Positions 1,438 through 36,240 are shown, numbered from the stretch's first letter. The stretch is 57,907 bases of DNA from an uncultured Nitrososphaeraceae archaeon (GCA_963825865.1 CAWGVG010000052.1:1-57907), one strand, 5' to 3'. Notes: generated by a model from the letters alone, not told the origin. Program-made: numbers and translations.

Positions 1438-1716
1438 CTAGCCAAAGAATGTTATTCAATGAAGCTGGATTTGCTTACAAATGCAACGGTAGTTGATGAT
1501 GCCATCAGGTTTGTATCAGAATCTGAAAAGCCCAAAGATAAAGATAAAAAAGAGCAAGTAAAAAGTTCACCTTCTTCTTCAGATAGTAGCGGCAATGAAG
1601 ATGACAAAGAATCTAGGGAGCCTGATCATAATGATGATGAAAACTCAGATAAAGAAGGAGAAGAAAACCAAGAACATGACACTGGTGGAATAACAACAGT
1701 AAATCAAGTTTTCTGA
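1438..1716 (+). pseudogene. 3' fragment of a Nitrososphaeraceae hypothetical protein (LAKECYSMKLDLLTNATVVDDAIRFV...TTVNQVF), possibly small terminase-like
   Basis: The motif and acidic tail are seen directly and the 5' part is absent. The family link is from memory and from the similar TTNTVF tail overlapping the terminase-like ORF at 9837. Confidence 0.5.
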
Positions 1717-1849
1717 TTATTGCTATGAAGTTTTGATTTCTTGCCATAGTATTTAAAAGAAGGTGAAAGCAATGGTTCTCACTAATGCATTTGCATTTCC
1801 TCCTAAAACAAAAACCTTTGTTATCAGTACAACAGCAACGACTACTACC

Positions 1850-2510
1850 TATTGCTTTAAGCATTTTATTCTGTAGACGAGTGTTAGCAGTTCTCTATAT
1901 AGGAGATATAATATATTGGACTCTTCAATCTTAGGGACATTTGACTGGCCTGTAAAGTTAGGGACATTTTGTGTTAACATAGGGACATTTTGTGTTAACA
2001 TAGGGACATGACCAACTGTTAACTTAGGTACATGATAATACTTATCATATTCAAACTGCTTTGCTTTGTGCGTGATAGCTACACTCTTAAATCATCCATG
2101 TTAAAGCCTGTAATTTCTAAGGTGTCCTTTACCTTGTTAGGTGATGAATCAAATCCGGCCCAATTTCAAACCAGATTAGATATTCATAAAGTGCCGATTC
2201 GATGTTGGCTTTCTTCTTGTTAAACCTCTGTTTGAGAAGTTCCTCTTCGGTCTTTTCGTTGTATGGTAATCTGAAGAAATATATTTTAAAACCTAAACCT
2301 GCTAGTAATTTGTATACATTATATGAAATGTCCACGGCTCCCCTGTCCATACAAACATTTTATCACCATATTCTCTATGGCCGTGTGCACCACTATCACT
2401 TCCGTAACCATGACCATCTGCTATCCTGGTTATAGCCCCCAACATCTTCTGTTGTGAAGATTGGAGCAAGTTCGGGTGTTAAGAAGAAACTATCTGTGTA
2501 AAGTTTACTT
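1850..2510 (-). pseudogene. Degraded fragment of an element-associated AAA+/helicase-like protein
   Basis: Across frameshifts it reads YTDSF-FLTPELAPIFT...ITRIADGHGYGSDSGAHGHREY...VDISYNVYKLLAGLGFKIYFFRLP. The family assignment is recalled, not searched. Confidence 0.4.
1932..2033. repeat. Five TAGG(G/T)ACAT boxes including two perfect 21-bp tandem units
   Basis: TAGGGACAT at 1932, 1959, 1980 and 2001, TAGGTACAT at 2025. TAGGGACATTTTGTGTTAACA at 1959-1979 and 1980-2000. Confidence 0.9.
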
Positions 2511-2979
2511 TTCTAGTTAGGATTTCAGATGTCCGTACCCTGCAGGAAACGATGACTCCTGAATAGGTCGTATTTGCATCCTAGTCAGTTTATCCTTCAT
2601 TTTTAATATCTACTAATCTAGTATGGAAATAGCAAAACCAATCAACAGTAGAAACAACTTGTTATCGAAGGCATCTGAAGGAATTCCAGACCATTGGCGA
2701 TGAAAAATAACAATAGTAAACCTCCGCAATTTTCGCCGTAGTGTCAGGCAGAAATAGGGCGATGGAAATGGAGTCCTAAGAGGCCACGAACAAAAAAGCC
2801 AACCCAATGTCGCGGCATTACACCTGCTTCCTTCGTATTTGCTTCTCAACCAACACCATGGATCTAACCTGAATTATCGAAGGAGATGGTCTGAAAATCT
2901 CCTCAATAAGAGTTTTCTCGCAAGAGTGGCAGAAGAAAATAAGTTGAACTGGTCATATTTGTCGCCCCTATAATTTCCG

Positions 2980-4314
2980 TCAAGTGTCTAAATCGGCCAG
3001 CCAACGTAAGGCGCGTATGCCTGGCATGAAACAATATTCACCACCGCGTGTGACGACGAACCGAGGAAGGTTGTAGAAGGATCTTCGGACTGGTTTGCGT
3101 GGGACGATAAACTTTCCTGTCCCATCGCCGGCTCCTGCAATGGGGTCTTTGTCGCCAGCCTGCCCCAATAAATATACCGTTGTTTACCCATTCTGATTGG
3201 ACAAACTCGAACTGGCGACCAAGATGCGCTCCTATGAAGACGAACATTAATCCTCGATCCGCTCCATCATCCTCCAATACTCCGTCCGGCAGAGGTGGGC
3301 CGTAATTGGTGCCGCGTCGGATCATCCTGTGAAGATTAACTTTGGTAGTGTCTCCGAGAGTGTCGCGTGGATTCGTTCGTCGAATGTGTGATCCGAGTGG
3401 CGTAATGAATCCTTTTGGATCCGTATCTTGGAAAAGGAAATTGTTGTTGCGTTGAGGGTCGGCTCCAAGTTCAGGGTCATCACGTTCAGGGCAGAGGGCT
3501 AATGGGGCGCCACTGCTCCAGCGTCCCATCATCTTTGCAGCTAGCAATTGCTCTTCTTCTGGGCTGGAGGAATTTGCTTTCAAGTATTTCCGGAAAGCCG
3601 CCACGCGTTGGTGGAGTTTACGGAACACAGCGTAGGTTCCGTTTCGGCCGAGTGCATCTGGTTTCGGCATAGCAGGAAACATTGCCAGTCTCGTCGCGGT
3701 AGCCTAATACGAACTCTCCAGCTTTGAGAGGTGGATCTCTTGGGTTGGTGCCTGGAATTCCACTCCCCTCTACTGCCGGATGACTGATCCCGTCCCTGAA
3801 ACCAAAAGGCTCCTTCCCAGTCGCCGACGCGTAGCAATCCTGACGCCAGATAGCTTTGATACCCTGCAATTCCTGGTATGCTTTCCTAGCACGCTCCATT
3901 ACTGGTTCAAGTTTCTGCTCATTTGGAGATAGGGCCGTCAGGACGACGTGCACGTCTTTTGTCCCGAGTGGTTTCTCCCAATTCTCAGGAGAGCTCTCTC
4001 CTGTGTCCCCAAGTTCATGTGCTCGTGCAGCCATTCCCTGCTGAAATTCAGGCGGGAAACTGTCCAGTGATTCTTGCGGAACACCCAAGGCTTTAAGACC
4101 TTGGAAGGTCAAGGAAACGCTTACCCAAGCATCGCCTGCTGGGCTTGTCTGATGCCCTGACGGACGCAACAACTGTACTCAGCTTCTGCATCAGCTCTCG
4201 TCCTACCTTACGGTCATCAATGCGGAGTAGGATGTAGGTTGCCACATAAGGCGAAGGTCGGGGAGAAAGAACCCCACTCTGTATGTCTTCCAATTCGAGC
4301 ACGGTCTTTGACAT
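2980..4314 (-). CDS. DyP-type (dye-decolorizing) heme peroxidase, split by three frameshifts
   Basis: LELEDIQSG N-terminus, EPFGFRDGISHP (GxxDG), GSHIRRTNPR (proximal His), HRMIRRG (distal Arg), QFEFVQSEW and FVVTRGGEYCFMPG C-terminus, spread over four ORFs. Confidence 0.92.
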
Positions 4315-4368
4315 CTCAGTCAACTCCACCCATTAGTCCCTGAACTTTTCGAGGTCTTGGCTGGGACT

Positions 4369-5356
4369 TCAGCCAAATAGATTCTTCCATAATCGTCGTA
4401 GGCTTGATTCACCGCCAAACGTGTAGGACCAAAGAGTGGCGTCTCCTATCAACACGTCACCGGCACGCTTTCCGTTGGGAGGTAACCATAGAAAGGCGTT
4501 GAATTCGCGGTTTCCCGCGTCAGTGAAGGGGTGTGGGCGTGCCATATTGATTGGTTGTTTCGCTAGAACTTTTACATGTTTCTCGTCATTTGTAGTTAAC
4601 GCGAAGTGTGGAAGATGTGGATGCAGGTTGAATGTTGTCACGCCTTGAAGCCAGCCAGGATCGTCCAAGTCTTTCGCGACGGACAAGGGAGCGGGCTCCT
4701 TGTTATCAGCGGTTCGTCCAGGATTGAGACCAAATCGATTCTCGACTGGAATACCCAAAGCATTCATGAGGGCACGCCCGAATCCGCCGAAACGTTGCTG
4801 GCGTCCCACTAAGCGGTCTGCCATGGTGCCGGTACTCTTTCTCGCGCACCGCCGGATCTTCTGAGGCACCGACTTCATGGTGTGGACATAGGATCAGGCG
4901 AGTTCCGTCTCGTCTCAACCATTTCTGAACCGCATTAACTTCCTCCGGCGTGGGTGATTGATTGGTGAGTTGATGATCGAGGCTTAGCAAGAGCAGTGTA
5001 TCTACGTCTGCGAGCATTCGGTCGTCGATCGTAAAGCTGTGTCCTCCTGGATCGATACGTTCAAAGTACGGGACCGGATGCCCTGAGAGCTCGCTGACCA
5101 TCTCACGGAAAGGTTCCCAATCTCGATGAAACAATTCTAGCGTCCCATCAATTCCCTGCATATACGTTTTCGGATTACCCGCCATCTCCTCGTATTTTGG
5201 GTAAGCGACTCGACGAACCTCCCACATGGCTGAATAACGGTTGTTCAACTCGTAGAGTTCCCTGCCTGCTTCAGCCGGGTAACTCCAGGGAACATACATG
5301 CTGACGCGGCGACGAGAGCCTTCTCGTTTGCGTGGTGCTATAGTCGTCTCAGTCAT
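4369..5356 (-). CDS. Conserved hypothetical protein of DyP-associated operons (possible GATase/ThuA-like fold), one frameshift near 4830
   Basis: ORFs 4706..5416 and 4369..4878 join at EYRHHG-D-RLVGRQQRFGG. Same strand as, and tightly linked to, the DyP gene, with the same high GC. Confidence 0.75.
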
Positions 5357-5381
5357 GGTCTCACGCTGCCCTACATCGGCT

Positions 5382-5849
5382 TTACTGCATTTCATCGAGC
5401 ATATTGCTGAATGCATTGCGAACTCTCAACGCCTTCTTGATCTCTTCGACTGTAACACCAGGATAACCCTCGAATTGGAAGAAGCTCTCTACCCCGGTTT
5501 CCCTCAGAAACTTCCTGTAAGCCTCTGGGTCACCTGTGGCAGCCTGGTCATCAGGAAATCCCTCTAGATCCGGAAAGAACCCTGCAGCCCCAGATGCAGC
5601 AAAGATCCTGGCTGCGTCGTCAAGGTACTTGTCCAAGTCCGTGTCAAACGAAGCATAATAGATGAATCGCGTATCATTATCAAAGAGAAGCCACCGCGCG
5701 TAGTGGAGCGTAAGCGGCCTCAATAACTTGTCCATCTCTTCCCACGGTATTTTAGCCCGTTCAGCTGCCTTGGCACGAATATTTTTGCCCCTTCCGGGTT
5801 TTACCTTCGAAACAAATGTGAAGTGTTGGGTAGTCCGCTGTTTTTCCAT
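5382..5849 (-). CDS. Small conserved hypothetical protein of DyP-associated operons (possible dimeric alpha-beta barrel)
   Basis: Intact 155-aa ORF containing LTLHYARWLLFDNDTRFIYYASFDTDLDKYLDDA...LEGFP...YPGVTVEEIKKAL. First gene of the operon. Confidence 0.8.
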   Translation of the reverse strand: MEKQRTTQHFTFVSKVKPGRGKNIRAKAAERAKIPWEEMDKLLRPLTLHYARWLLFDNDTRFIYYASFDTDLDKYLDDAARIFAASGAAGFFPDLEGFPDDQAATGDPEAYRKFLRETGVESFFQFEGYPGVTVEEIKKALRVRNAFSNMLDEMQ

Positions 5850-5879
5850 GATGCATTTTCTCAGGACCCAGTTAATAAA

Positions 5880-5887
5880 TATATAAA
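5880..5887 (-). promoter_or_regulatory. Candidate archaeal TATA box for the DyP operon
   Basis: TTTATATA on the minus strand, ending 31 bp before the ATG at 5849, in a short AT-rich divergent spacer. Confidence 0.5.
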
Positions 5888-5945
5888 CAGACAATGTGTG
5901 CAATTCAATATGTTAGCCTCCTACAGGAAAGATTAGCCATGACTG

Positions 5946-7300
5946 GTGAGCTACGATTTAGTGGTGCTCGGAGCAGGCCACGCAGGTGAAAGTGCTGCGG
6001 AGTTGGCTGCGTTTTTTGGACGTAGCGTGGTGATAGTTGAGAAGAATAAACCAGGTGGAGTGGTCACTACGACCGGAGGGGCGCCTACGAAAACGTTGCG
6101 TGAGTCTATGTTGGCGTTGACAGGTTTTCACGACCGTGAGGTGTATGGAATCACAGTGTCTGCTCGTCCTCGGCTAGCTGTTGAGAAGTAGCTGGACGAA
6201 CAAGACACGTGGTCGAATTGTTGCAGGACGTCACTGCACAGAATATCGCCAGAAATGGCGTCGAATACGTGCAAGGGACGGCAAAAGTCGGTTCTGATCG
6301 AAGAGTTCTCGTTACTTCTCCTGGAGGCGAACATCATGTGCTGTTAGCCAAGAATATTTTAGTGGCTACTGGATCGCGACCATCTCATCCAGACAACATT
6401 CCTTTCGAAGACCCTGATGTATGGGACTCAGAGGAGTTCTTTTCACCAGGACGACGGCTGCCTAAGAGCATCTTCATAGTCGGAGGCGGCCCGGTCGGCG
6501 TTGAATTCGTCACCATCTTCGCCGGGTTAGGTGTTCCAACGACGATATCTGATTCAGTCGATCGACTCATTCACAGTATGGACGCGGAGATGTCGAAACT
6601 CATAGCGAAACATCTCAAACGCATTGGCGTAGATGTTATCCTTGGATCCACGACCAGAGCGATCAGACGAGTTAATCGCAGGCTAGGGGTCACGTTGACG
6701 AACGGAAGATCACTTCATCCTGATGCTGTGCTCTTTGCTGCAGGCCGCAGCGTTAACACAGACGGATTAGGACTGGAGGCAGCAGGCGTTGAGTTGGATG
6801 ATCGTGGACGAATCAAAGTTGACCGCGACTACAAAACCACTGCTGACGGGATCTACGGTGCGGGCGACGTGTTGGGTCCAAGTTTGGCGTCGGTTGCGAT
6901 GGAGCAGGGACGAATCGCAGCTTGCAGGATCTTCGGCATCAAATTAAAAGGCATCGTTGACCCTACGCCTGTTTCCGCCGTGTACTCTATGCCGGAAGTC
7001 GCGGGGGTAGGCTTGACTGAGGAACAGTGTCGATCGCAGGGACTGGATTACGCGGTCGGGCGTTCAGATTTGTCGCTCATCCCACGTGGAGTCATAGCTG
7101 GACACGGAGGAATATTGAAGTTGATTTTCAGCAAGAAAGATCGCCGACTGATAGGGGTACATTGTTTCGGAGACATAGCTTGCAGAGCTAGTCGGCATAG
7201 GACAGATGGTTCGCTTAACACTCCAACCTACACATATGCCTACAAGTATGCGGCTGTAGACGGAATCCGAAAACTAGGCAACTTCAAACAAAAGCATTGA
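5946..7300 (+). CDS. SthA-like pyridine nucleotide-disulfide oxidoreductase (soluble transhydrogenase-like); frameshift near 6190 and apparent short deletion near 7215
   Basis: YDLVVLGAGHAG (FAD), LVATGSRP, IVGGGPVGVE (NAD), FAAGR, YGAGDV, AVYSMPEVAGVG and SthA-like tail NTPTYTYAYKYAA. Confidence 0.85.
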
Positions 7301-7689
7301 AGATTTTCATTAAAACTTCCTTGCTGGTCCGATAATTCGCGGTGCTCACAAGATGTGTACCGTGATTCACAGGTACGAGCAACGAATCGTATTTTTCGCG
7401 CCTATTATTGTAGATATATATTCATGCTTACATCTTTGGATAAAGTCTTGCACTTTTATGTCTGTATCAGCATTGAAAAATGTCGAATCAGTAAAGCCAA
7501 ACACAATCCTCCATTTGTTTATGGATACGTCTACCCTCAGTCTGTTATACATTCAGCAACCTGATAATTGGCAAATTCAAAATACTCATTTCCGAACAGG
7601 CCAAAGCCAGCATTAACGAAAAGTTTGGCACCGAGTTGATGTGTCTGATATTCTTCTATTGACTTTGAATCACAATTGGGTTTTTCCTT

Positions 7690-8170
7690 TTCCTCTTTTA
7701 ACAAAACCAAATATTTGTTACGATCAGATGGTTGTTTGTTCTAGTACTTTGGGAAAGGCGCCGTTTCTTTGCTGACATACCCAGTATCTATCCACCTTAC
7801 GAGGAATATCGTTTTCTTGCAGCTGTTCATTGTGTCTATTGTTTCCATGCATTTTCATTATCTTTCCAGCAGTTACAGTTCAAAGTGTCAAATGAAAAAT
7901 TATTATTTATTACGATACTAGGATACTGACCTTTTAGATCAAGTTCATAGATTTTTGTCACTACAAAAAATGTCCACCACCCATCGCCTGTCTATCTAAC
8001 TTGTAGTTTGGTGTATAGGAAATAGTACATTTCGCCCGATTCTAACATCTTCCTGTATCGAGTAGCATACCATGTACCTAATCTCAGTATGACAGACCAA
8101 CGAATAATCCATCTTTGCATAGGCGAGCGAAAATTTTCATGATTCTTAAGGCAAGACAGTTATGTATCAA
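7690..8170 (-). pseudogene. Family-B DNA polymerase internal (palm, motif A) fragment
   Basis: Manual translation ...QAMGGGH...KIYELDLKGQYPSIVINNNFSFDTLNCNC...YWVCQQRNGAFPKVL. DxxxxYPSI motif A lies at 7914-7940. Several frameshifts and deletions. Confidence 0.8.
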
Positions 8171-8476
8171 GTTCAGAATAGTATGTCCCCGATTTATTAT
8201 AGTATGTGTTATATAGATTGGATGTTAAGCTTGCGTGCGCGGAATTCGCGCTGCTAGTTAAAAGAAATTAGGTTGCCAAAATGTCTGTCCAATATGAGAA
8301 AAATACAGAGCAAATGAATTCTCTGTCTGAAAGGCCTAATCGTTCAACTTACTAATCGACTAACGTGGAATAGTTAAATAACCGAATTGAATTCATTGCT
8401 AACAGTCCTAAATTTGGTTAAGACTGGGAAAGAAGATAGTCCGAAGGAAGGTCATCAGAATCCCTCTGGTAAATTG

Positions 8477-8834
8477 ATGTCAACCTCGATATTGACATCT
8501 TTTTCCGGCATACTCTTTGCGTTTCTGCTAAATATAGGTACTAGGACTCCTGAAGATTTTAGCCTCTTCAGTCGTTTTATCCTTCTTATTGCATTATACT
8601 CCAGTTGCATAGCTATATGTTGCTTTATAATGCCGATTCTTTCTATTAAATTAGGCTTCGAGAGGTATGTGGAACGCATGGAGAATGCTATGAAGGTGGG
8701 CGCCATTGGCAGCAATGATCGCAGTCTTCCTTAGCCTCGGAATAGCCTTAAATGGGTTGTTAAATAAAGAAATGGCATATGCATTTTCGGCTTTGCCATT
8801 CATAATAATAGGTCTGGTTATCTGGAGAAAATAA
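8477..8834 (+). CDS. Small four-helix membrane protein (DUF6328-like), frameshift near 8710
   Basis: Hydrophobic ORF ILTSFSGILFAFLLNI...; the other frame continues AAMIAVFLSLGIAL...LPFIIIGLVIWRK*. Confidence 0.55.
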
Positions 8835-9394
8835 CTCGGGGTAGGTATGACGAGTCTCAATATTTGCCTCGACGTAAAGCTCAAGCCTGAGAAGCAAGTA
8901 GCAATCCAACGCTAGATAGTATATTCGTCTGTCATTTACGGCTATTTGGGTCACAAGCGAATGGTTGAAAATTAGGACACAGCAAGCAAGAATCGAGTAG
9001 AGTATTAAATATATTTAGTCAGAAATATACGTATTACAGAAATGCGACAGTAATGACCGAAAACAGGGGGAATTAGTAGTGCACTATCAGAATGCATGCA
9101 AAAATACACTACACAGCACGAGTTGATGATTAGCGAAGTGATAAACCCTTCTTCTAAGGAAAAATGGATTACCGGAGATAGCGGTGTCCGAGAGTCCCAT
9201 GTCTAAAGTCATCTTATTTAATTAATGCGATCTAATTTTGCCCTTTACCTTAGCGAAACTTTTAATCTCTTCAATATCCTGTGGCGTCATGATCAATTCC
9301 TGTATCTTGTGCATTATCTCAGATAGGAGTGTGCATAGTGTTTTGAAGAATTGCATATGTAATGCAGGATTGAAAGAAGTTTAATATAGATTCT

Positions 9395-9700
9395 ATAGAA
9401 GTTGAAGCATTTCCAGTAGACCATTCCCTTCCCGGTGCTTGTGGTTTCGTATTGCATACTTCAACTGGGTCTATAGGTTATACCGGAGATATTCGTTTTC
9501 ACGGTAGAAAGGTGCGGAAATTCAGATCTTGATATTTTGTTGTGTGAGGGAACTCGGATCCATGAAGATTATTCGGAAACAGAACTAGATGTTGAAGCAG
9601 ATGTCATAAAAATAGTTAATAACACTGAAGATCTTGTTGTATGCTCATATCCTACGAGGGATCTAGATAGATTTCTGTCGTTTTATAATGCCGCAAAATT
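9395..9700 (+). pseudogene. MBL-fold / RNase J-like metallo-hydrolase internal fragment
   Basis: IEVEAFPVDHSLPGACGFVLHTSTGSIGYTGDIRFHG...LLCEGT...RDLDRFLSFY; both ends missing. Confidence 0.75.
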
Positions 9701-9819
9701 ATTCCATTGCATTTTCACTGTAAAGATATTTTGTCCCGCCTGGTGAAAAGCATTGGCATGACCTACACATCCGTTGAACCAGTATCAGAAAAATATAAAA
9801 TTGAAAATACTGTTACTAT

Positions 9820-9901
9820 AGATAAGAATCATACTGATGACATTCAAAGATCTGAAGAAGAGGATAAACAACAATCAAAAACAACAAACACAGTATTTTG
9901 A
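9820..9901 (+). pseudogene. Extreme 3' tail (…EEEDKQQSKTTNTVF*) of the protein family also seen at 1438-1716
   Basis: Acidic tail ending TTNxVF*, overlapping the start of the next gene in another frame. Confidence 0.4.
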
Positions 9902-10150
9902 CAAGTTACAGAACAAACCATTCTGGATCTGGGACATAGAAGAGCATAAGCTGGAAGACATAAGGACAAAAGGAGAGTGCTGTTTTAATCACATAATTGG
10001 CTTACCAATAAAAGAGGTATTAGAAAAACCGATTTTCGATTACCAGGAATTACTGTACGAGGCATTGCTTTCACCGGATTTTTGCAATCCTCTGAATCAT
10101 GATTTCAAAGACAAGCATCTGTGGATAAAGAAGGCAACAGGATTAGGGGC
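9837..10150 (+). pseudogene. Terminase large subunit-like ATPase, N-terminal fragment
   Basis: KPIFDYQELL resembles the adenine-binding Q motif and HLWIKKATGLG resembles the terminase Walker A. The sequence breaks immediately after GLG. Confidence 0.55.
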
Positions 10151-10504
10151 AGATAGTGTTATCTCATTTTTTTTGTTAAACATCATACCAAAAGACTTTT
10201 CATTACATTTAAAAGTTCGTATTATAAAATTAAATTCGCTATAGACGATATTGACAAGTTAGAAAAGAGTGTAAAATCAGCTAAAACTTTGATAGGCCTT
10301 TTTTGTACTTCAGAGATATGCCTCTCTAACACTAATGACTGTAGATTTACGGCTAAATGTATTAAAAACACAAAATTCTCTGACATAGTTACTGTTGATA
10401 TTCCAGCGTACTCGAGAACCATACCTGATGTTAAAAGTATTGTAATTCGTTTTATTCATAGTTATGAAAAATTAATCTAGTTTGATGAGGAAATATTATA
10501 TAGT

Positions 10505-11551
10505 AGATCTCTTGCGTAATTAGCAGCTATAGTCTAACACCCTACTTGTTTTAGCCGTCTTCTTAGATTGAAATGCTGTCAGACTGTATAACTCTGAAGT
10601 TCAGGAGACCGGATATTATATCAGATACGTTATTGTACTTCCTTAATCTGTTTCTAAATTTAATACCCATTATTCCAAACTTTTTGATCTTACATATGGT
10701 ATGTTCTACTATGATCCTTAGCCTAGAATGATTCTTGTTGTAAGTTCTTTCATCACATGAAAGCAATGTACCCTTTTTCTTTTTGATACGAAGTACAGAC
10801 TTTACAGTGGGAAAGTCCTTTTCAATGCCAAGATAACCAAGATCAACTATGTTTTCAACTTGTGATGGAGTTATAGAATGATTGTGTTTGTAAATGTCAT
10901 AATCATGTTTTCTTCCACTTCTGTGACCTGTCTTATGCAGTATCAATCCTTCACTGTTTACCATCAATTGTGTCTTGACAGTATGTTTCTTCTTTCTACC
11001 TGAATAGTAACTCTTCCTTCTTCTTTTGTTCTTAGGTCTTGGAATTTCTTGTTCTGTAGAGTCTATGAAAGCCTTGAATCCAGGAAAGTACTCTTCTACT
11101 TCATCTATAGTTCTTAATCTCCTAGTAACGTTTGTATATCTTCTTTGGCAATGGAATACACTCCTTGATAAGTGGTTCCATCATTGATATATCTCTACAA
11201 ACATTGCTTTGATCAAGGTCAAACAGAAATCCTGATAATGTATATGTAATGTATAATCTGTAGTATACTAGAAGCATAACGAATCTTTCTTTAACTTTAA
11301 GCTTAAATGGTCTACCAGCACCTATATCCCGTATTCTCGTCCTTGATAGAAGACGTCTTCTTTCGTGCTCTTCGTAGTTATGTTCAATTTCGTTACAAAT
11401 GGATTCAAATTCAGATACAGTTACTCCGGTAAATGACCTGAATATCAAAGGTTTCTTACATAATTTGCTATAGGACATCAAAGAGCTTGTCAGATAGATA
11501 TCCTATGTGAAGAGGAATATAGCTCTAAGCTTCTAATTACACAAGAGATCT
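10505..11551 (-). mobile_element. IS5-family (ISL2-like) insertion sequence
   Basis: Terminal IR AGATCTCTTGCGTAATTAG / CTAATTACACAAGAGATCT (1 mismatch), AGT on both flanks (10502-10504, 11552-11554), internal transposase. Confidence 0.9.
10563..11478 (-). CDS. Transposase (HTH_Tnp_4 + DDE_Tnp_4), frameshift near 11128
   Basis: FRSFTG, GAGRPFKL, IDSTEQEIPRP, YSGRKKKHTVKTQ, DLGYLG, RIIVEHTI. Confidence 0.9.
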
Positions 11552-15062: not shown

Positions 15063-15064
15063 CT

Positions 15065-18583: not shown

Positions 18584-18735
18584 TGAATAAACCTTATCTT
18601 TTTTTGATCAAAAGACAATTACTAAAATGTGCTATAAATAAAAGAAAAATATTGAGTGCATGCAGTTGCCATTTAGCATATATCAACAAAGAGCGCATTG
18701 AGTTGATTTAATTATTTTACTTTTATTAGAAACAG

Positions 18736-20870: not shown

Positions 20871-21230
20871 AAACACATCGTAATTTAAGTAGTTATTGGA
20901 TTACTCATTTTTTCATAATATTTTCTTGTATGTTGTTGTTTCAAGTTATTGTTAATAAATTAGGCAAGGTTCCGCAGATGATCATATGCTGCAGTCTGGA
21001 TACAGCTTATATTTACTTATGAAACAGCAATAGCGACAGGAATAATGAAACTACGAAGAAGTACTATATGTTTCTGTTATTTCCCCTATTATCCCTGTAA
21101 TAAGACCCGATTGGCATTCGTAGTGGATGAGTATTTTGTCTTCTAACTATACTTATATAATTCTGTTTACCAGTACATAATTGGCACGATAAACGTCTCG
21201 GTCCCAGGAAAGAGAGTATTTGCACAATAC

Positions 21231-26946: not shown

Positions 26947-28120
26947 ATACGATAAAAGTATTAGTTATTTATAAGTGTTGAATCTTATAAACTAATCACG
27001 GAACACATTGACATAGTTAACAAAAAAAGGGGCAGATCAAGAAATAAGGAAGTTTGACAATTCTTAATCCTGTCCTATTCCTAATCCTGTCAAGGACTAT
27101 TCCATTTGCAAAGATAAGGTGCATGCTATGAAAGCTACGGGTCTAGCAATGTACATTATTCGATTTGAATGAATATAGAAAAGACGCTGAACACAAACGT
27201 CACTATAACAGGCTTTGCAATGTTCCTAATTACACCATTATTCTATAGTATATGTATATCTTTGATCGTTGCTGCTATTGCGATTGTTCTTTGATTTGTT
27301 GTGATGAGTGTATCAATTGTTGGCCTCGTGCCGTTCTCTTTACAAAGTGACGCCAACTCGCTAGAATATAATATGGAACCATAGTTATCATTATTGTTAA
27401 TAGATTTATTGCTGTGGGTATGGAACCTATGATATCTGCCTAAGCGTTTTGTATTGCTCAAACATTGTTATTATAAGTTACATACACTAATGAAAATGTC
27501 TCTGGTAGCATAGTTCATCCTTTTTTTAACTATCTATTTTGACGGTTATTAGTAATTTGAGGAATTATTAGATCTCTAATAATAGGAAAAGTATCATCAA
27601 CTGAAATACACGTGCTGCAGGACAGCAAAAGTATTCTTTCAGATCAGATATCAGATTAAGTGTCCTTCAGCAATAGAAAAATTATGTATACGCGAATAAT
27701 AGTTTATTGAGCAATTTATTAGATACGTGGGTGGTTTCTGAAAATATTATAATCAAATCAAGTAACTACAGATTTAAGACTATTGGTTCAGCCGGCACAT
27801 CGAATTTTGTGTTAAATAGATATCAATTTGTCAAATATGCATTAAAGGCGGTTATTAATTGGATGCTCTACGGATACACACTTTTACCATTTCGTCGAGG
27901 ATGAATTATCCTCACAGTGGGGTTTAGACCATTCTGTAATGATGTTAAATTATATGTTTGGGGTACTCTCATCATACAATGTTTGAATGTTGGAAAGTGA
28001 TATGGATCACATTTATTTTCAGAAAGAAATTTCATGGAAAAAATTAGGAATTCTGTAAATAGGCTTGTTGAAACCATTAATCAGAGAAGGAAGAAAAAAG
28101 CACAAGTCGCAGTCAGGGCT

Positions 28121-28672
28121 GATGATCGATACTTATCTAAGGATTCATTCCTTTGAATATTACTTGCTTTTCCATCATTGTTATTAATGTCGTGGCAATC
28201 TCAGACCGTTGGAAATATCTGACCTTCTAGTTTTTGGATATTGCAATCCAGTAGTCTTAAAAGATCTTTTATCAGCTTCCAGAGTTCTATTTTATAGATA
28301 TCGATATCAAGGTCCTGATAGTTTGTAGAATATCCTTTGTACCCATCTTCTTGCTGTCCAGTTTTATAATAGTTAATTAAGATACCTTGTACTTTTTTTA
28401 GTGATTTACCTATTTTGTGTTGTGGTGTATAAGATTGGTAGTTATCAGGATCTTTATTCAAAATAATCGAATATGCCAAGAGAGATGGATCAACTTCTGC
28501 TGCATCTAATTGTTTGAATGCTCTTAGTACATTGAAAGTCAAATCAGGTTTATTATTTTTATAATCGTCAATCAGCTGGCAGAATACCTGATTGAAAAAT
28601 GGAGGCCTATCTCTTTTTTTGCCTTCCATTCCCTTTACGATCACTTTACCATTTGATTGAATACCTATGTAA
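28121..28672 (-). pseudogene. Family-B DNA polymerase C-terminal fragment, copy 2 (direct repeat of 20225-20820)
   Basis: YIGIQSNGKVIVKGMEGKKRDRPPFF; 28403-28566 matches 20549-20712 at 163 of 164 bases. Confidence 0.85.
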
Positions 28673-28707
28673 CTTATTATATTGTCATTCTGCAGCATAA
28701 AATATCT

Positions 28708-28900
28708 TTAAACTCTCTGATTATTGTCGTTGAATTCATCCTTTAATTCTTTGTTTTCTGGCATACGACTACCGATGTATTTTTTCTTTAGTTTCTTGCT
28801 TTCAGTATCTTTCCAGTATGCATAGTAGTAAGGCCCATGTTTTTGTTCACACATCTGCTTACCGCACTTAATGTATTCCTTTCTCACTGTTGCCGCTGAT
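28708..28900 (-). pseudogene. DUF6788-like Cys/His protein, C-terminal part
   Basis: ATVRKEYIKCGKQMCEQKHGPYYYAYWKDTESKKLKKKYIG; the upstream part is frameshifted. Confidence 0.65.
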
Positions 28901-29530
28901 TTGGCTCTATTAGCACAAGCAAGCTGTCTTGATTTTATTTTATTTATGAACTTGGTCGCTCTATCTGTATGGCCACATTGAACGTAAGAAGGCTATTTTT
29001 TCCTGTTACCATTTTGCTCTTACTCTATGGCAGCAGCTAAAATATCTCCACCACCTCCACTACCTCCACGTTCGCTTGTCAATAGGAGCGAGATTTGAGC
29101 TTCTTTTAGTGGAGTTATTGTAATTAGATATCTCCATCAATAATGAGAGATTATTTAAATTCTATTCAGCTAACGATGATGGCATATCGATGTATGACAA
29201 TAATCCTGTTTTATTCTACACTGCTGTAGTATATTATATGTAATGTCTGTAATGTAATCAAATCCAATTATGTCCATCAGGTATGCAATCCACCTTTGAC
29301 GTGGATCTCTTTCACGAATTTGATACCGTCTGCAAGAGAACTGCTTTCTACGTTGTGTAGATTTTGGATGCTCGCTAGACTTTCATTTAGTAATTGTTTA
29401 GGACTATTATTATGCCATTTTTTGAAATCCCGATGATCAACTGTTATTTGTTTTATTGAGGGTCAAATAGAATCAAAGATGCATAATATAAAATAAAGGG
29501 AATTTAGCTATATTCTTTAGAGTTAATGTC

Positions 29531-29821: not shown

Positions 29822-30898
29822 GACATAATTCTATGTTAGGTGACAGTCCGGATAAAAGCTACGCTGGGTATGCGGCCTGTAAATTGATTCGAGCCTTGTC
29901 CATTATATCCACCGTGAGTCCTCTCATACACCAGCTTGATTCATAAAAAACCATTCTCGCTTGTCAAATTGATATATTTATTCTGGAGGTACCCTTAAGT
30001 CTAATTCGTGTTGAGTGAGCTCGTGCGCACATTATTTATAATTCAGTGTGTTAGAGATCATGTGATGATAGAAGATTTTTATTCTCAGTTATATTAGGCA
30101 GTTAAATCGATTGCGGTCATCATATCCAGAATCAGCAGCCATGTAATGTACTCCTTGTGGAAGTGAGGATGTTATTGTGGGATATATCTGATTATCTTGT
30201 ACATTAGCTCGTGTAAAGTCTGCTGATAGAGGTACTATGAGCGAACCAGTACTTGCTGTTATGTGGAGTTTATAACCAAATATCCAACCTTTGGTGTGAC
30301 TGAATCCCCATCTAGCATCTGTATCTATACCTAAACGTGGGACTATTCCTTTATTCATAGATGATTTGTGCCAGAGATGTCCTTTGGCTCTAAGCAATGT
30401 ACTATCTATTGCAACAATGTATGGGTCAACCAATCTTTCATTTACAAATAGATTTCCCATAGTTGATATCCTTTCTTTGGTGTCTACAGATATTGTCGAA
30501 AGTCTTCTGTCAAATGTCCTTCTGTCAGGAAGACTGGTTAATCCACATGCTTTCAACACCTTTCTGTTATATGGATAACAATCCATGGAAAGATAATCAT
30601 GTAATGCTCTGTTAGAATCAAATCTCAGCCATATCCTAACTACAAAACAACGTAGTATTACAGTTGGAGGATATACAAATGGTCTACCTCTTCTCTTTCT
30701 CTGAGATTCTGGCCAACGTATCAACCCTATCAAATATAGAATGCTAATTAAGATGGATTCTGATGATGTAATATTTGTTGTAGCTAGCCTTTGTGACTGT
30801 TTGAAGGTTTGTCACCACAAAACATCAGATATCCTGAGGTTAGCTTTATACCAAATCATCAATGGAAATTGGCAAAACTATGAACAGGGAATTATGCC
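29822..30898 (-). mobile_element. Degraded IS with a DDE_Tnp_1-type transposase (IS4/IS5 superfamily)
   Basis: Imperfect IR GACATAATTCTATGTT (29822-29837) / AACAGGGAATTATGCC (30883-30898) around a truncated transposase. Confidence 0.55.
30089..30733 (-). pseudogene. DDE_Tnp_1 transposase, truncated after the second Asp
   Basis: RGRPFVYP, LPDRRTFDRR, VAIDSTLL, DTDARWG...FGYKLH and ADSGYD, then unrelated sequence. Confidence 0.85.
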
Positions 30899-31396
30899 CC
30901 AGCCTCAACTAACTAACTAACTATATGTGCCACAGCGATACGTATTGTGAAGCTTATACGCGCGCGTACCGCGATCAGTGGGCAGTTTTAGAAAACAGTG
31001 GAAATGTACATAACAACAGCTTTGCTAGTAGGTACAGATCAGAATGAAGCCGCTTCTGTAAATATACAAGGAAATAATAATAATAATAAAGTGAACATAT
31101 GACAAGCTGAATAATCGCATCAAAGCTTTGCTAGCGGCGAGTTAGATTTTACACCGGGACATATGGTTTTAGGTTCTCCTAGTGGTAGTAATAGTGGCGC
31201 AGATAATCCGAGGTGCGTCTTACTTTATGCCTCTATAAAGTAAATAATTTTCCTTCTTTTTTAGGTTGCTTATGTTGGTCAGCTTAAATGAGCTACATTT
31301 TCATTTAGCCTGCCAATAACTAAATAACAGAGCAGACAACATTAGGGGAAATTAATCATCACTAATAGCGCCCAAGGATAAAAAAATAAAAATATC

Positions 31397-32158: not shown

Positions 32159-32190
32159 AATAGCAGACTGTAGCTGCTACTACGTGGTAA

Positions 32191-33013: not shown

Positions 33014-33474
33014 GAAATTATAACCAGCATGTTGTTACTATAGTATATTTGATTTATTGCAAATCTTGCTATAATTTAAAACCAATATATTGAGCTGTAT
33101 GAGTTTTACAGTTTTATCAATTGTATCAACAATGTTATTACTACTCGTCATACTAGTATAATGTACTACATACATAGCTAAAAGGTTTTTGACAGCAAAT
33201 TGTTTAAGATTATTATGGTATTATATTGTGTATATCTTGATTAACTTTTCTCTGAATATATTAGAACAATATATCTATCGAATTGGAATGCATAACTGCT
33301 GATCAGAATCATACATTGAAATAGAATAATATTTTATACACTCACATTCTTTGTACTATATTACATAGTAAAAAGAGATTTCCATAATATACAGATAATA
33401 GTTATATGAATAATTGCACCTCAATTAATATTCTGAATAGTTATACGAAATAAGTCAGCATTAAATCATATTAG

Positions 33475-33515
33475 ATAAATCAGCATTAACCTACTCAAGT
33501 CAAATATACAGATGA
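33475..33515 (+). promoter_or_regulatory. 41-bp conserved upstream element, copy 1
   Basis: ATAAATCAGCATTAACCTACTCAAGTCAAATATACAGATGA; one mismatch to 34273-34313. Confidence 0.65.
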
Positions 33516-33538
33516 CATTGTACTGGTTGACGACGAAT

Positions 33539-33877
33539 ATGAACAACACAAAAACTTTAGCTATAGTTGCTGTCTTAATAGCGGCAACATTAGTAATAGT
33601 AGGAGTAACGTTCGCAGCTACAACACCAACAGCATCAGCAGCATATGGTCATAAGAAAGGAGGAAACGATAAGAAAGACAAGGAAAGAGATAATGGAAGT
33701 GCAAATGGTAATACAGATACCGTACAGATAGAAAAACAAAAAGCTTCAGTAAGTGGATTTGATAACACAGCAGAACAAGAGGCTCAAAACCTGATATGTA
33801 CTCATCCAAGCTCAACCTGTGTAAGTGAAGGCAGCGAATCTAACTCAACTGACACAACTGACAACGGCGGAGAATAG
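33539..33877 (+). CDS. Small secreted ICTHP-motif protein
   Basis: Signal peptide MNNTKTLAIVAVLIAATLV...ASA, a Lys-rich stretch, then SGFDN..EQEAQNLICTHP. Confidence 0.75.
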   Translation: MNNTKTLAIVAVLIAATLVIVGVTFAATTPTASAAYGHKKGGNDKKDKERDNGSANGNTDTVQIEKQKASVSGFDNTAEQEAQNLICTHPSSTCVSEGSESNSTDTTDNGGE

Positions 33878-33897
33878 AATAGCATCAGGCCATTAAG

Positions 33898-33935
33898 GGT
33901 AGTTCTTTATTACTACTACCAACTTACTTTTTTTT
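33898..33935 (+). terminator. Conserved hairpin plus T-tract
   Basis: Same 24-mer as 32191-32214 with GGTAGT/ACTACC arms, then oligo-T. Confidence 0.6.
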
Positions 33936-34272
33936 GTCCTTATGCAAAATACTGAATTTGTTATCGAGTATACCTATAATTATGTTATTTATTTTCTCTG
34001 TAATAACCTAATGAGTAATCGAAATCAAAAAATCCACAACTGTACAGCAGGTTAGTAGTCAGATTTTATACTAAATAAGTCAGTAATAACAAACAGTAAT
34101 AGCTCCATTGTATTTGATCTAAAACTTTAGAACCTATTATTATCTAACTGAACGCTTCGTTTCATCTATAACTTAGTAATAATTAATACTATTATCAATC
34201 GGTAAGTAAATACTTCACTAAATCTATATCGTCAATAGTTATACAAAATTATTTAGTAGTACATCATGTTAA

Positions 34273-34313
34273 ATAAATCAGCATTAACTTACTCAAGTCA
34301 AATATACAGATGA
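34273..34313 (+). promoter_or_regulatory. 41-bp conserved upstream element, copy 2
   Basis: ATAAATCAGCATTAACTTACTCAAGTCAAATATACAGATGA, 18 bp before the ATG at 34331. Confidence 0.65.
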
Positions 34314-34330
34314 TATCATATTGACAAAAT

Positions 34331-34849
34331 ATGAACAACATACTACAAAAAATCTAGCTGTAGCTGCTATTGTAGCGGCAATACTAGTAGTGGGAGGAAC
34401 ATTTGCAGCAACAGTAACGCAGTCAGCAGCAAGCATATGATCATAAGAAAGGAGGAGGAATCAAAGAAAATAGTAAAAATGGTAACACAGTTACCTTGCA
34501 GAAAGATAAACAAGACGGAACACAAAGTGGATTTGATACTTCATTTGAGGAAGAAGGTCAAAATCTGATATGTACTCATCCAGACAACAACGCGACTTGT
34601 TCACAAGAGGGAGCAGTGGCACCAGTAAAAAGAACTTGCGAACAATGTTTCACAACTATACTTAAACCAGAACAGATAACCACCGTTCTAGGTTCATCGG
34701 TATCAGTTGCACTGGCGTGCGCGACTTTTAATCAAGAAACAGAGGCTGACTTTAAAAACGGCCTAATTGTCTTAGGAATCCCCATGCAGACAGCAAATGA
34801 TCTAATCGCATGTCTATTAAAGGCTGGAATAGTGTTTAAACCTGCCTGA
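34331..34849 (+). CDS. ICTHP-motif secreted paralog with an extra Cys-containing C-terminal domain; 5' part frameshifted
   Basis: TKNLAVAAIVAAILVVGGTFAA...YDHKKGG...SGFDT..EEEGQNLICTHP then TCEQCF...ALACA...LIACL. Confidence 0.7.
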
Positions 34850-34961
34850 TGTTGTTGTTGTAAAGCTGCGAGATTAATTGTTGTATGCTCCCAACACACA
34901 TGTCTAATTTTTCCTTTTTATTGAGTATCTATCATCATATCGCCACCATCAATTAAAGTAC

Positions 34962-35093
34962 TATGTTACAATATTGTTATGTTACCAATTAATAGTAACA
35001 TAAATATGTATCATTCTAATTTTTCCTCTGTCAATGGCCTTACTGGAACCTGGTCCTTTCTTATCTTGAGTTTCTCAAATGTGTCTGCTTGTG
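34962..35093 (-). repeat. Dispersed repeat, copy A (gene tail KLKIRKDQVPVRPLTEEKLE* plus palindrome)
   Basis: Homologous to 36077-36240 (inverted) and 51238-51396; contains TTATGTTAC-N9-GTAACATAA. Confidence 0.8.
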
Positions 35094-35157
35094 TTTATTA
35101 AAAGGAAAGATACTATTATCCCTGTTACTGCTACAAAAGCAAACGGCCATCAACAGG

Positions 35158-35933
35158 TTGTAGATGTACTTTCCAAAGAAACAGGCCTCTCAATATCAAT
35201 TGATTATAACTACAAGTTTTTAGTGCTATTACCTATTGAAGCTGATGAAAACATAGAGGCACTCAAACATTACTATGGCGTTACTCAACAAGGCAAGTTG
35301 GTTGTCAGGGGTATAGAAATTAGTAGACATGATATTCCAAACTTTATAAAGCAATTTCAAACTGAATTGCTATACACGCTTTTTAATTGCAAAGATTCAG
35401 CTGAAGTGGAAAGCAAAGGATATGAAAATGCTCTTTTACTGGTCACCAAGGCAATAGATAAAATTATGACAGGTGAAGAGATTCAGCAACAAGATCTCGT
35501 GATTTCTAAATTACTTGGACAGGATATAGAAAAATACAAGAGTTTATTTCCCCATGTATCCGCTGCCATTCAATTAAGCAATACTGGGGGAGGTAAATAT
35601 CCAAGAAAAGGTGAAACTATTCAGTATATCTATACGGATTCACAGCACAAGAATCCCCTTTGCAGAGTTGTACCTTTAGAGATTTTACAAAAAGTAGGAG
35701 AAAAAGAGAAAGATGGTAAGGAGAATGGTAAAACTCTGAATTATTATGACAAGGATAAATACAGAGAAATGATACTTGATGCTGCAGAAACTGTATTAGG
35801 CTATTTTGGCTTTGATAAAACTGTTTATGAAAATCCTGGGAATAATAGAAAGAAAAAGAGAAAATGGTATAAGGAATTGCATGAAGAAAGAACAAAAGAT
35901 ATCCATGCAGAGATGATGATGGAAAAACATTAA
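35158..35933 (+). pseudogene. Family-B DNA polymerase C-terminal fragment of a second PolB lineage
   Basis: LKHYYGVTQQGKLVVRGIEISRHDIPNFIKQFQ, LVISK.L...Y...PHV.AA, GETIQYIYT, YDKDKY; no exonuclease domain or motif A. Confidence 0.85.
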
Positions 35934-36076
35934 GCTTAGTTGCCGGTCCAAAATATATAAGAATACTAAAAACCCATCTTACCAATAATTGCATAAGAAG
36001 GAACTACAGCTAAATTGTTCATAGCAATAACTAAACTTTTTAGCAATGTTATTCTCTATGAACAAGAGTTTTGAAG

Positions 36077-36240
36077 GGAAAAAAAGGATCAATCCCAGCA
36101 ATAATGCTTCACAAGCAGTATATATATTCAATAAACTCAAAGCAAGAAAAGATCAGATTCCAATAAGACCATTGACAGAAGGAAAATTATGATGATATAT
36201 GGTACTAATAATTGATATCTAACAGTGTTGCATTGCAACG
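36077..36240 (+). repeat. Dispersed repeat, copy B (ASQAVYIFNKLKARKDQIPIRPLTEGKL*)
   Basis: Only a few mismatches over ~100 bp to the reverse complement of 51238-51396; the palindrome is degenerate here. Confidence 0.85.

Follow-up and report, generated by a model that had tools for sequence, protein, structure and literature searches.

Probable remains of cargo-carrying, possibly satellite-like integrative elements in a Nitrososphaeraceae genome

Element pieces, cargo and insertion sequences

We analysed a stretch of 57,907 nucleotides (the window) from an uncultured member of the Nitrososphaeraceae, a soil ammonia-oxidising archaeon, whose genome is available as 62 contigs at 81.8% completeness. 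The following features were located in the window, with positions counted from its first nucleotide.

1438-1716 (+): TerS-like HTH protein, C-terminal 92 aa, with coiled-coil end and acidic tail ending NQVF
1924-2037 (+): five iteron-like direct repeats of ~21 nt, spacing 21-27 nt (repeat search)
2144-2485 (-): MCM-like AAA+ helicase remnant, many stops in every frame
2930-7300: GC-rich cargo block (about 52%, by composition)
3038-4172 (-): DyP peroxidase (Pfam)
4369-5903 (-): unknown ORFs in the DyP block
6209-7300 (+): pyridine-nucleotide disulphide oxidoreductase (Pfam)
7421-7958 (-): degraded PolB palm-domain shard (motif A region), summed tblastn E 5.9e-15 against a relative's PolB
9689-9901 (+): second TerS-like tail (translation), ending TVF and overlapping the TerL start (9837)
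9837-10175 (+): TerL-like N-terminal 113 aa, remainder of the gene missing
10481-11570 (-): IS element with DDE_Tnp_4 + HTH_Tnp_4 transposase (Pfam), up to 59 nucleotide copies
18730-19874 (-): IS630-like element (HTH_33/HTH_32), 10-15 copies
20206-20892 (-): PolB C-terminal (thumb) shard of the 760-aa type, one in-frame stop
21424-26946: second cargo block, 41-45% GC, with a repeat-rich 708-aa ORF, an NHL-repeat propeller and a 370-aa unknown ORF
27312-27467 (-): DUF6788-family gene, N-terminal piece, 54% identical to aa 1-49 of a 159-aa paralogue (E 1.3e-11)
27826-28080 (-): linker-region piece of a PriX-containing replication protein, E 8.9e-9 to aa 624-698 of a PolB-PriX ORF on contig C31
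28117-28707 (-): another C-terminal PolB shard, its residues those of the shard at 20206-20892
28711-28992 (-): DUF6788-like small zinc-ribbon gene, Pfam E 3.7e-4, 21.1 bits (cut-off 27.2)
30092-30924 (-): partial IS with DDE_Tnp_1 transposase (Pfam), up to 25 nucleotide copies
35070-35933 (+): PolB C-terminal third (aa 557-837 of 839) of a different lineage, PF00136 E 1.5e-11, 44.2 bits
51478-52132: an element that, from the appearance of its sequence, we take to be IS6-like
54459-55542: second copy of the DDE_Tnp_4 IS

The two tails at 1438-1716 and 9689-9901, described earlier by a TTxxxVF motif, proved to be the C-termini of one family of HTH proteins of ~200 aa, in the alignment of which the terminal F is invariant. 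The first is 69% identical to aa 109-200 of a 201-aa paralogue (tblastn E 5.5e-26) and has 16 nucleotide-level copies in the genome, as has a nucleotide repeat at 9757-10149. The second runs into the terminase N-terminus, which we confirm at 9837-10175 (+) with 83% identity to aa 7-118 of an intact 513-aa paralogue (E 1.6e-56). This 513-aa parent matches PHROG phrog_2 'terminase large subunit' over residues 70-504 (E 1.8e-19). Its AF2 model (pLDDT 70) has an N-terminal ASCE ATPase and a C-terminal RNase H-like nuclease domain, the two-domain fold of TerL, and the top Foldseek matches are full-length T4 gp17, Sf6 gp2, HK97 and D6E TerL (E 1.9e-14 to 1e-11), with isolated nuclease and ATPase domains matching too. 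Against Pfam Terminase_6C the TerL of this genome scored 17.9 bits (cut-off 22.6); many homologues carry PF17289, and a PDB sequence profile search with the parent found no TerL. On the predicted fold together with the PHROG match we take the parent to be a true TerL, the sequence profiles agreeing in part. Intact TerL copies are under strong purifying selection (dN/dS 0.05-0.08 at dS 0.6-1.0), and such dS values indicate old independent lineages rather than a recent burst.

As the HTH protein overlaps the TerL start, it occupies the position expected of TerS. In relatives, an HTH ORF of 170-285 aa likewise overlaps or abuts the TerL start at loci L066, L070, L073, L074 and L078, and lies 0.9-1.4 kb upstream of TerL at L071 and L072. 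No PHROG or Pfam TerS family was matched by the HTH protein, sub-threshold HTH families being the only hits, and Foldseek gave 0 structures at E <= 0.001, the best rows not being terminase small subunits. The name TerS-like is thus used on the strength of gene position and the HTH.

All four PolB pieces of the preliminary description are real after adjustment of their limits. The shards at 20206-20892 and 28117-28707 are respectively 73% identical to aa 531-746 and 65% identical to aa 546-746 of the PolB of a relative, G073, and resemble each other at 74% aa identity and at 87% nucleotide identity over 300 nt. A sub-range of the former, 20503-20892 (-), matches PF00136 with E 4.6e-9 and 36 bits, above the curated cut-off of 23 bits. 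Because the pieces share covered residues they do not tile a single provirus, and the earlier view that this is not one colinear provirus holds. The claim that they derive from one module fails for the piece at 35 kb, which is part of another repeat block, 7.3 kb or more in length, where a RadA-like gene is followed by PolB. Several copies of this block exist in the genome, most of them truncated and with variable 5′ ends; a near-full copy on contig C10 (81% identical to the 35-kb piece) has in-frame stops in both PolB and the RadA-like gene. PF00136 has 26 matches in the genome as a whole, and truncated and internally deleted PolB copies of similar kind are present in other genomes also.

Of the helicase-like piece proposed at 1850-2510 only 2144-2485 (-) is retained, as a call weaker than those of PolB and terminase. 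Its match, with 33% identity across 134 aa, is to residues 273-398 of a relative's 745-aa MCM-like protein (E 1e-10), which adjoins an integrase and TerS-TerL at L071 and has a sibling matching PF00493 MCM (E 1e-31). The proposed DUF6788 gene falls below the Pfam cut-off but is 75% identical to a paralogue on contig C15 and has 15 paralogous pieces in the genome. The PriX linker piece matches a relative's PriX protein as well (E 4.8e-8). The repeats at 1924-2037, the only such cluster in the genome, may have an iteron-like role. Five IS copies of four families, recognised by a transposase domain and many near-identical copies, are present in the window; all five had been overlooked, three of them within the span described earlier. 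A repeated gene tail with a palindrome was not located, two 10-nt inverted repeats after the PolB stop being all that was seen. The window does lack integrase, capsid and cas1 genes, as noted before, and it contains no att site, no tRNA and no att-like direct repeats of >=30 nt except gene-derived ones.

Intact elements in related genomes

In relatives, intact TerS-TerL pairs mark elements of about 11-15 kb. TerL relatives were found in 64 of the 81 genomes of the family, often with more than 13 matches. A TerS-like gene adjoins TerL in 7 of 13 loci, and a tyrosine recombinase is present in at least 8. The replication module is variable: it consists of PolB with a p711-like ATPase, a PriX protein and DUF6788, of PrimPol-D5, or of an MCM-like helicase. 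The PriX protein was found at L066, L067 and L069, PrimPol-D5 at L074 and the MCM-like helicase at L070, L071 and L073, while at L078 a 1797-aa PolB fusion stands beside TerS-TerL. Small elements with integrase, replication and packaging genes and without a virion module were seen at L066-L074 and L078, and the elements of relatives also hold cargo genes; what the window retains of such elements is shards. Their gene order backs the earlier proposal of a multi-copy family of self-replicating, terminase-encoding elements in this archaeal family. It may be noted that the PolB element of G073 (L096) has an integrase but no TerS or TerL within 20 kb, a point against our reading of the region.

Alternatively, the pieces may be remains of ordinary head-tailed AOA proviruses whose structural genes are too divergent or deleted, TerL and TerS having survived or being detected best. 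The TerL fold is indeed of the tailed-virus terminase type, and TerL relatives at 35-46% identity are found on IMG/VR contigs of 34-100 kb, of which one shows a weak portal match (E 1.3e-4). However, in one genome two intact paralogous elements align collinearly for about 11.5-13 kb from the far end to the integrase, which leaves no space for a virion module. The neighbours of TerL are integrases, replication genes and defence genes, and among about 20 of them scanned in relatives no capsid or portal Pfam match was found. PF05065 and PF04860 have 0 matches in the genome under study, a count to be read with the caution that divergent archaeal virus proteins may escape profile searches. Also, of the ORFs from 8 viral contigs only TerL matches many loci of this genome (27-33), and the putative portal matches none. 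We consider a proviral origin unlikely.

Cargo blocks and their borders

Nucleotide copies of the DyP block occur at 80-91% in two other genera. In G137 the block is 90% identical, the same PolB shard abuts it (80% nucleotide match), and a PrimPol-p711 fusion and PriX lie ~4 kb away. Soil metagenome contigs of four runs from four studies cover 2586-9104; one contig spans 6531-7964 and so bridges the junction of cargo and PolB shard (7300/7421). DyP cargo and PolB shard have been passed on as a unit, both in another genus and in the four soil metagenomes; cargo that travelled inside an element would show this pattern. The block is common to the four soil populations, whereas its left border (about 2586) is not. 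At the DNA level the second cargo block was not found in 150 relatives, except for the NHL repeats.

In the preliminary description the shards were functional homology anchors, through which elements recombine with the chromosome and import or shuffle cargo as a dedicated plasticity or transfer system. In line with this, direct repeats bracket both higher-GC blocks (TerS tails at 1438/9689 and PolB shards at 20206/28117), the unshared left border places a breakpoint at a cargo border, and terminase genes would suit packaging-based transfer. The enrichment at GC shifts that it implied is present to a slight extent (mean flank |dGC| of element pieces 0.0297 against 0.0241 at random, a value reached in 0 of 200 shuffles), as would be expected of any horizontally acquired DNA. 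Yet the bracketing PolB shards, at 87% identity over 300 nt, make a poor substrate for homologous recombination. The junction of DyP cargo and PolB shard is kept across genera and soils, which fits shared descent and not repeated capture, and neither an empty site nor a circular form nor a recombinant junction was seen. The dS of the intact TerL copies speaks against recent exchange, and any decayed cargo-carrying element would leave the same picture. Anchors that import cargo are thus without direct support; we found no support for the broken pieces working as a gene-shuffling device and regard this explanation as very unlikely.

Much of the fragmentation might also stem from a metagenome assembly that is noisy or chimeric, through indel errors or repeat-induced misjoins. 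The completeness of 81.8% in 62 contigs and a single frameshift in trpD would agree with this. Against the contigs of all four soil runs the window has one extra base at each of 3681, 4158, 5369, 7372 and 7541, and against three of the four at 5896; of these, 3681 and 5369 fall where neighbouring cargo ORFs overlap, and 4158 and 5896 where a cargo ORF has its upstream end. The related populations of the four soil runs lack the frameshifts by which the DyP cargo is split, and these may be assembly errors. The earlier statement that none of the pieces is full length holds for the mobile-element genes. The element genes, in contrast, are cut to 50-290 aa and not frameshifted, and independent contigs built from short reads extend over 2586-9104 and take in the junction of cargo and PolB shard. 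The truncated and internally deleted PolB copies of other genomes, and multi-copy TerL pieces in a 99%-complete relative of 10 contigs, likewise argue against an artefact, which as an explanation of the fragmentation is extremely improbable.

Genome-wide distribution of the pieces

The genome holds about 50 TerL and 52 TerS pieces, 176 element pieces and about 156 IS pieces (IS5-like 62, IS630-like 28, IS4/5-like 50 and IS6-like 16). One remnant, C7:21408-36717, has TerS, TerL, Int, p711, PolB, PriX and DUF6788 in one orientation. Most TerS/TerL pieces stand alone: 13.7% have a replication-type piece within 5 kb, no more than chance would give (14.5%), a point against our own reading as well as the earlier one. 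Within 10 kb the values are 29.4% and 23.7%, and 23 of 200 shuffles reach the observed one. Element pieces within 500 bp of an IS amount to 3.4% as compared to 6.7%, and this absence of enrichment makes no case for IS-driven truncation.

Discussion

We read the region, with a probability of roughly 0.6, as an accumulation of several decayed integrative elements that carried cargo and were possibly satellite-like, with the 35-kb PolB piece coming from a separate block. The part from 1.4 to 36 kb would be a zone of accretion and decay in which three or more copies of a family of small integrative elements have left remains. On this reading the elements would enter by site-specific recombination and replicate with their own module, and their own terminase would package them into head-tailed helper virus capsids in a satellite-like cycle. 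Erosion after integration by deletion, IS insertion and rearrangement would then leave backbone shards beside imported cargo. The window itself represents ordinary decay, and the interest resides in the family.

More tentatively, the family may comprise undescribed capsid-less integrative elements, often present as tens of copies or fragments per genome, that combine TerS-TerL and a tyrosine recombinase with interchangeable replication modules (PolB-PriX, PrimPol-D5, MCM-like). These could be archaeal counterparts of phage satellites, packaging themselves in the capsids of head-tailed AOA viruses and ferrying cargo between genera; this is possible rather than probable. If so, examples of ferried cargo would be the DyP/oxidoreductase block and the defence genes GmrSD and NurA-HerA, and repeated arrivals of this kind would have left their record in the window.

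Among known systems, the PICI and P4-like phage satellites are likewise small and integrative: they combine an integrase with replication and packaging gene(s) of their own and lack a complete virion module. Defence genes or other cargo are often found in them, and most are known to encode only the small terminase subunit. These satellites are bacterial. For the present elements neither a helper virus nor a packaged form nor a gene for capsid redirection was seen, and the nearest IMG/VR TerL is 44-46% identical. By its described gene content NitKor-E1, a cryptic integrated element of Ca. Nitrosopumilus koreensis, is similar in having TerS directly upstream of TerL, a tyrosine integrase and no other tailed-virus genes, and its terminase was called 'enigmatic' (Krupovic et al. 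2019, PMC6563490). As presented there, NitKor-E1 is a single element of a marine genus (PMC6563490). The present family differs in occurring in multiple copies in soil genera, with replication modules of the PolB/PriX, PrimPol-D5 or MCM-like kind attached. The repeat block of the 35-kb PolB recalls NitGar-E5, for which an operon of PolB, arCOG08101 and an inactivated RadA is described (PMC6563490), in having RadA-like genes ahead of PolB; it differs in being repeated in the genome, mostly as copies cut short at differing 5′ positions.

Like the head-tailed AOA provirus Nvie-Pro1, the present elements have a tailed-virus-type TerL, but loci of that type are described with capsid, portal and tail genes and no replication genes, the reverse of what we see (PMC6563490). 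A head-tailed provirus is disfavoured, as Pfam found no HK97-fold capsid or portal gene in this genome or among the TerL neighbours scanned in relatives, although divergent archaeal versions could escape. Casposons of Thaumarchaeota are PolB-encoding mobile elements of the same phylum, described as using Cas1 for integration where the elements of relatives use tyrosine recombinases (PMC6563490). The Cas1 integrase (PF01867) has 0 matches in this 81.8%-complete genome, and a casposon was set aside. Tycheposons integrate at tRNA genes and, to our knowledge, carry no terminase. A tycheposon-like island was rejected, neither a tRNA nor att-like repeats of the kind sought above being present in the window. 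Their host, Prochlorococcus, is unrelated to this archaeon; as far as they are described, tycheposons are likewise tyrosine-recombinase elements that bring cargo, in islands littered with remnants (bioRxiv 10.1101/2020.12.28.424599).

Decay is general in this genome, 31% of the window being repeated elsewhere in it, and broken trpD, SDR and UDP-glucose dehydrogenase genes lie on the same contig (C52) as the window.

Setting of the window

The window makes up the entire contig C52. The genome to which it belongs comprises 4.98 Mb in 62 contigs at about 35% GC (completeness 81.8%, contamination 2.8%), and 31% of the window is repeated elsewhere in it (blastn, E 1e-10). Two blocks of higher GC are present in the window, one of about 52% at 3-7 kb and one of 41-45% at 21-27 kb. 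Every stretch named in the preliminary description was visible in six-frame translations, and five IS copies from four families had been overlooked there. As it stated, no integrase and no Cas1 was found in the window; we also found no tRNA. Other features are as follows.

1924-2037: five tandemly spaced repeats of about 21 nt (TGTTAAC-TAGGGACAT-type), between a TerS tail and an MCM-like remnant
33479-33874 and 34418-34846: small secreted-protein genes with the signal peptide MNNTK..., two members of a multigene family
41836-43014: UDP-glucose dehydrogenase, a broken ordinary gene
44875-45900: trpD, split by one frameshift, the trp neighbourhood being otherwise intact (TrpG at 45917-46504)
52366-53209: SDR, a broken ordinary gene

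The breaks in trpD, SDR and UDP-glucose dehydrogenase reflect either general decay or assembly indels. The repeats at 33102-34681 were considered as an IS and rejected as such, being part of the small secreted-protein family, which has about 40-48 loci genome-wide and whose 33-34.7 kb repeat is present in about 60 copies. The cluster at 1924-2037 is the only one of its kind in the genome and could be an origin or a binding site for the terminase or a replication protein.

Terminase and TerS-like protein

The stretch at 9837-10175, described earlier as a terminase N-terminus, is one of about 50 pieces of its family in this genome, of which only three are uninterrupted ORFs of at least 500 aa (contigs C59, C4 and C48). 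In Pfam these ORFs gave a weak DEAD match and nothing else, and a PDB sequence profile search produced nothing beyond a fortuitous Walker-B match to RFC. The family is nevertheless settled as TerL-like (terminase large subunit), because many of its 3103 homologues carry Terminase_6C, PHROG returned a large terminase subunit (E 1.8e-19) and the top 12 matches of a fold search with the TerL model were all phage large terminases. The 'TTxxxVF' tails proved to be the C-termini of a protein of about 200 aa, in which an N-terminal HTH is combined with long helices and with an acidic, disordered tail whose final Phe is invariant, and whose frame overlaps the TerL start. As profile and fold searches gave no match to any TerS family or fold, we infer its TerS-like nature from position and architecture, which fit a small terminase subunit. 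The terminal Phe may be a TerL-docking motif.

The TerL gene of about 1.55 kb was also considered as an IS-like mobile unit, and nucleotide homology between its copies does end at the gene ends. This was rejected because the intact copies in this genome have long been diverging (dS 0.6-1.0) under purifying selection (dN/dS 0.05-0.08), and because larger elements exist in relatives. Intact TerL copies are therefore old, selected lineages and not a recent burst.

When TerS-like proteins from this genome and its relatives were aligned, the final residue was Phe in 9 of 9, the acidic tail varying in length and sequence. On contig C51 of the same genome (locus L004, 6144-7625) a 494-aa Prim-Pol ORF ends in about 90 residues that are the end of the TerS-like family, and is apparently a chimera formed from two genes of the elements.

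Polymerase and helicase pieces

All four polymerase calls held. The pieces at 20206-20892(-) and 35070-35933(+) match Pfam DNA_pol_B above the cut-off, that at 28117-28707(-) has 74% protein identity to the 20206-20892 piece, and that at 7421-7958(-) represents the palm domain, as a badly broken shard (summed E 5.9e-15). The helicase-like stretch matches an MCM-like protein of a relative's terminase element (E 1e-10). The claim of one single module is wrong or lacks support. Two lineages, unrelated to each other, are represented among the four PolB pieces. That at 35 kb is the final third of an 839-aa PolB, has 80-90% identical copies on contigs C10, C9, C54, C57 and C47, and lies within a repeat at least 7.3 kb long, headed by RadA-like genes; a RadA-like/PolB-type operon is known from NitGar-E5 (PMC6563490). 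For the other three pieces the relatives' version is either a 760-aa protein (genome G073) or fused in a 1797-aa protein (genome G069). The same C-terminal stretch of about 215 residues is represented in the shards at 20 kb (aa 531-746) and 28 kb (aa 546-746), which therefore stem either from separate copies or from duplication of one fragment.

A 13.5-kb circle integrated via the PolB gene was entertained, as the shard 7421-7958 seemed to end where 20206-20892 starts. It was dropped on account of a gap of tens of residues between the aligned shard parts (with the closest full-length PolB as reference) and of other breakpoints in the PolB copies of relatives.

Some further PolB variants were seen. 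On contig C10 (locus L007) the RadA-like gene and the 839-aa PolB of the RadA-like/PolB block are full-length except for single in-frame stops, TAG at 3484-3486 and TAA at 8987-8989, respectively. On contig C31 (locus L005, 3586-6072) an 829-aa ORF combines the polymerase domain of a PolB with a PriX (primase X) domain at the C-terminus, with no Pfam match to an exonuclease domain; relatives encode the PriX part on its own, in a gene of 365-388 aa. Two genomes of one genus share an internally deleted PolB (L098, G026:C254, ~3922-4543; L094, G059:C477, ~1358-1984) in which aa ~176-222 are fused to ~599-760, a variant that has been inherited or spread.

The parent element and its distribution

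Of 13 loci taken around TerL in relatives, 7 carry the TerS-like gene and at least 8 a tyrosine recombinase; replication genes nearby are a PriX-domain protein (3), a PolB fusion (1), PrimPol-D5 (1) and an MCM-like helicase (3). In a 99%-complete genome, a pair of paralogues of the element shows collinearity over about 11.5-13 kb, terminating at the integrase. Capsid and portal families were found neither beside TerL in relatives nor anywhere in the present genome. The latter holds a collinear remnant (C7:21408-36717) with TerS, TerL, integrase, p711, PolB, PriX and DUF6788 on the same strand, and therefore the PolB, terminase, helicase-like and DUF6788 pieces of the preliminary description can share one kind of element. 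Its proposal of a multi-copy, self-replicating, terminase-bearing element family was right. Within 20 kb of the PolB element of G073, TerS and TerL were not found. In the present genome, the proximity of TerS/TerL pieces to replication pieces does not differ significantly from chance (13.7% against 14.5% by shuffling within 5 kb; 29.4% against 23.7% within 10 kb, reached in 23 of 200 shuffles). Integrases lie within 10 kb of 15.7% of TerS/TerL pieces against 9.0%, a value reached in 2 of 200 shuffles. For the 229-aa protein downstream of TerL the protein atlas gave no usable match, and for p711 leads only (ATP-binding protein, 0.91; PriCT_1 on 25% of one cluster, 0.89).

Directly 3′ of an intact TerS-TerL in one relative (locus L071, G013:C146, 9614-17999) are GmrSD/HEPN, NurA-like (E 7.6e-4, under the Pfam cut-off) and HerA-like genes and a ResIII helicase, a set that looks like defence-type element cargo.

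Of 81 genomes of the family, 64 contained TerL relatives (62 of 79 when two unpublished genomes are left aside); 17 genomes, the present one included, had at least 13 matches, and one genus had none in its 7 genomes. The terminase-element architecture is thus widespread and multi-copy in this soil family, and under purifying selection when intact. The nearest IMG/VR TerL proteins are 44-46% identical and lie on contigs of about 55 kb. Among the ORFs of eight such contigs, TerL alone matches many loci of the present genome (27-33), and a putative portal matches none.

Relation to known elements

The mobile elements of ammonia-oxidising archaea (AOA), which play a key part in soil nitrification, are poorly known. 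The present family is a variant of the cryptic integrated element with a terminase, and may be satellite-like. Should the elements turn out to be virus satellites, they would provide a main route for gene flow, would help to account for the large genomes of soil AOA with their many repeats, and would extend satellite biology to archaeal tailed viruses. NitKor-E1, a terminase-bearing cryptic element termed enigmatic in 2019 (PMC6563490), has a related architecture, but here the elements are widespread and multi-copy in a soil family. Our literature search found no multi-copy TerS-TerL/PolB-PriX elements for this family, a result on which annotations in the supplement of PMC6563490 may bear.

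Shards at cargo borders

The preliminary observation was largely right. The function given to the element pieces, as homology anchors that import and shuffle cargo, is improbable and has no support of its own, and the pattern is what would remain after several cargo-bearing elements had decayed. Over 300 nt, the PolB shards flanking the second island (21424-26946) share 87% identity. We saw neither a recombinant junction nor an empty site nor a circle. Against 150 relatives, the region 20000-29200 gave only PolB, DUF6788 and NHL-repeat matches and no DNA-level counterpart. Enrichment at GC shifts held to a slight degree, contrasts being 0.0297 against 0.0241 ± 0.0019 at random (reached in 0 of 200 shuffles). 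IS-mediated truncation was dropped as a general cause of the shards because, genome-wide, the surroundings of IS copies (0.5-2 kb) show no excess of element pieces; no continuation of TerL was found beyond the IS at 10481-11570. The window itself is ordinary decay, which explains the apparent shuffling machine, and the interest lies in the element family.

The DyP cargo block in other genomes and soils

The GC-rich DyP block (about 2930-7300) has copies of 80-91% identity in two other genera. In one relative (G137) it adjoins a stretch 80% identical to the window's PolB shard, with a PrimPol-p711 fusion and a PriX gene about 4 kb away and a diverged oxidoreductase copy nearby. The terminase-element architecture is linked to cargo moving between genera. 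The stretch 2586-9104 is covered by contigs from four soil metagenome runs, each of a different study; one of these contigs bridges 6531-7964, and therefore the cargo-shard junction is real and common by descent. Left of 2586 other soil populations differ from the window. The scant or absent contig cover at about 9226-9826 and the small-share RNA runs carry no evidential weight. A joint 1521->9768 in one contig was considered as an excision and rejected, being an intact TerS-TerL copy elsewhere.

Relative to the window, one base is absent at 3681, 4158, 5369, 7372 and 7541 in all four soil runs and at 5896 in three of them, most of these sites being joins or ends of cargo ORFs; none lies at a long homopolymer. 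Those populations therefore probably have an intact DyP. In the window, the breaks of cargo ORFs are due either to strain differences or to errors in the consensus, and assembly error may account for part of the apparent breakage of genes. All four runs also have 40 and 30 extra letters relative to the window, at 7211/7212 and 7509/7510, respectively.
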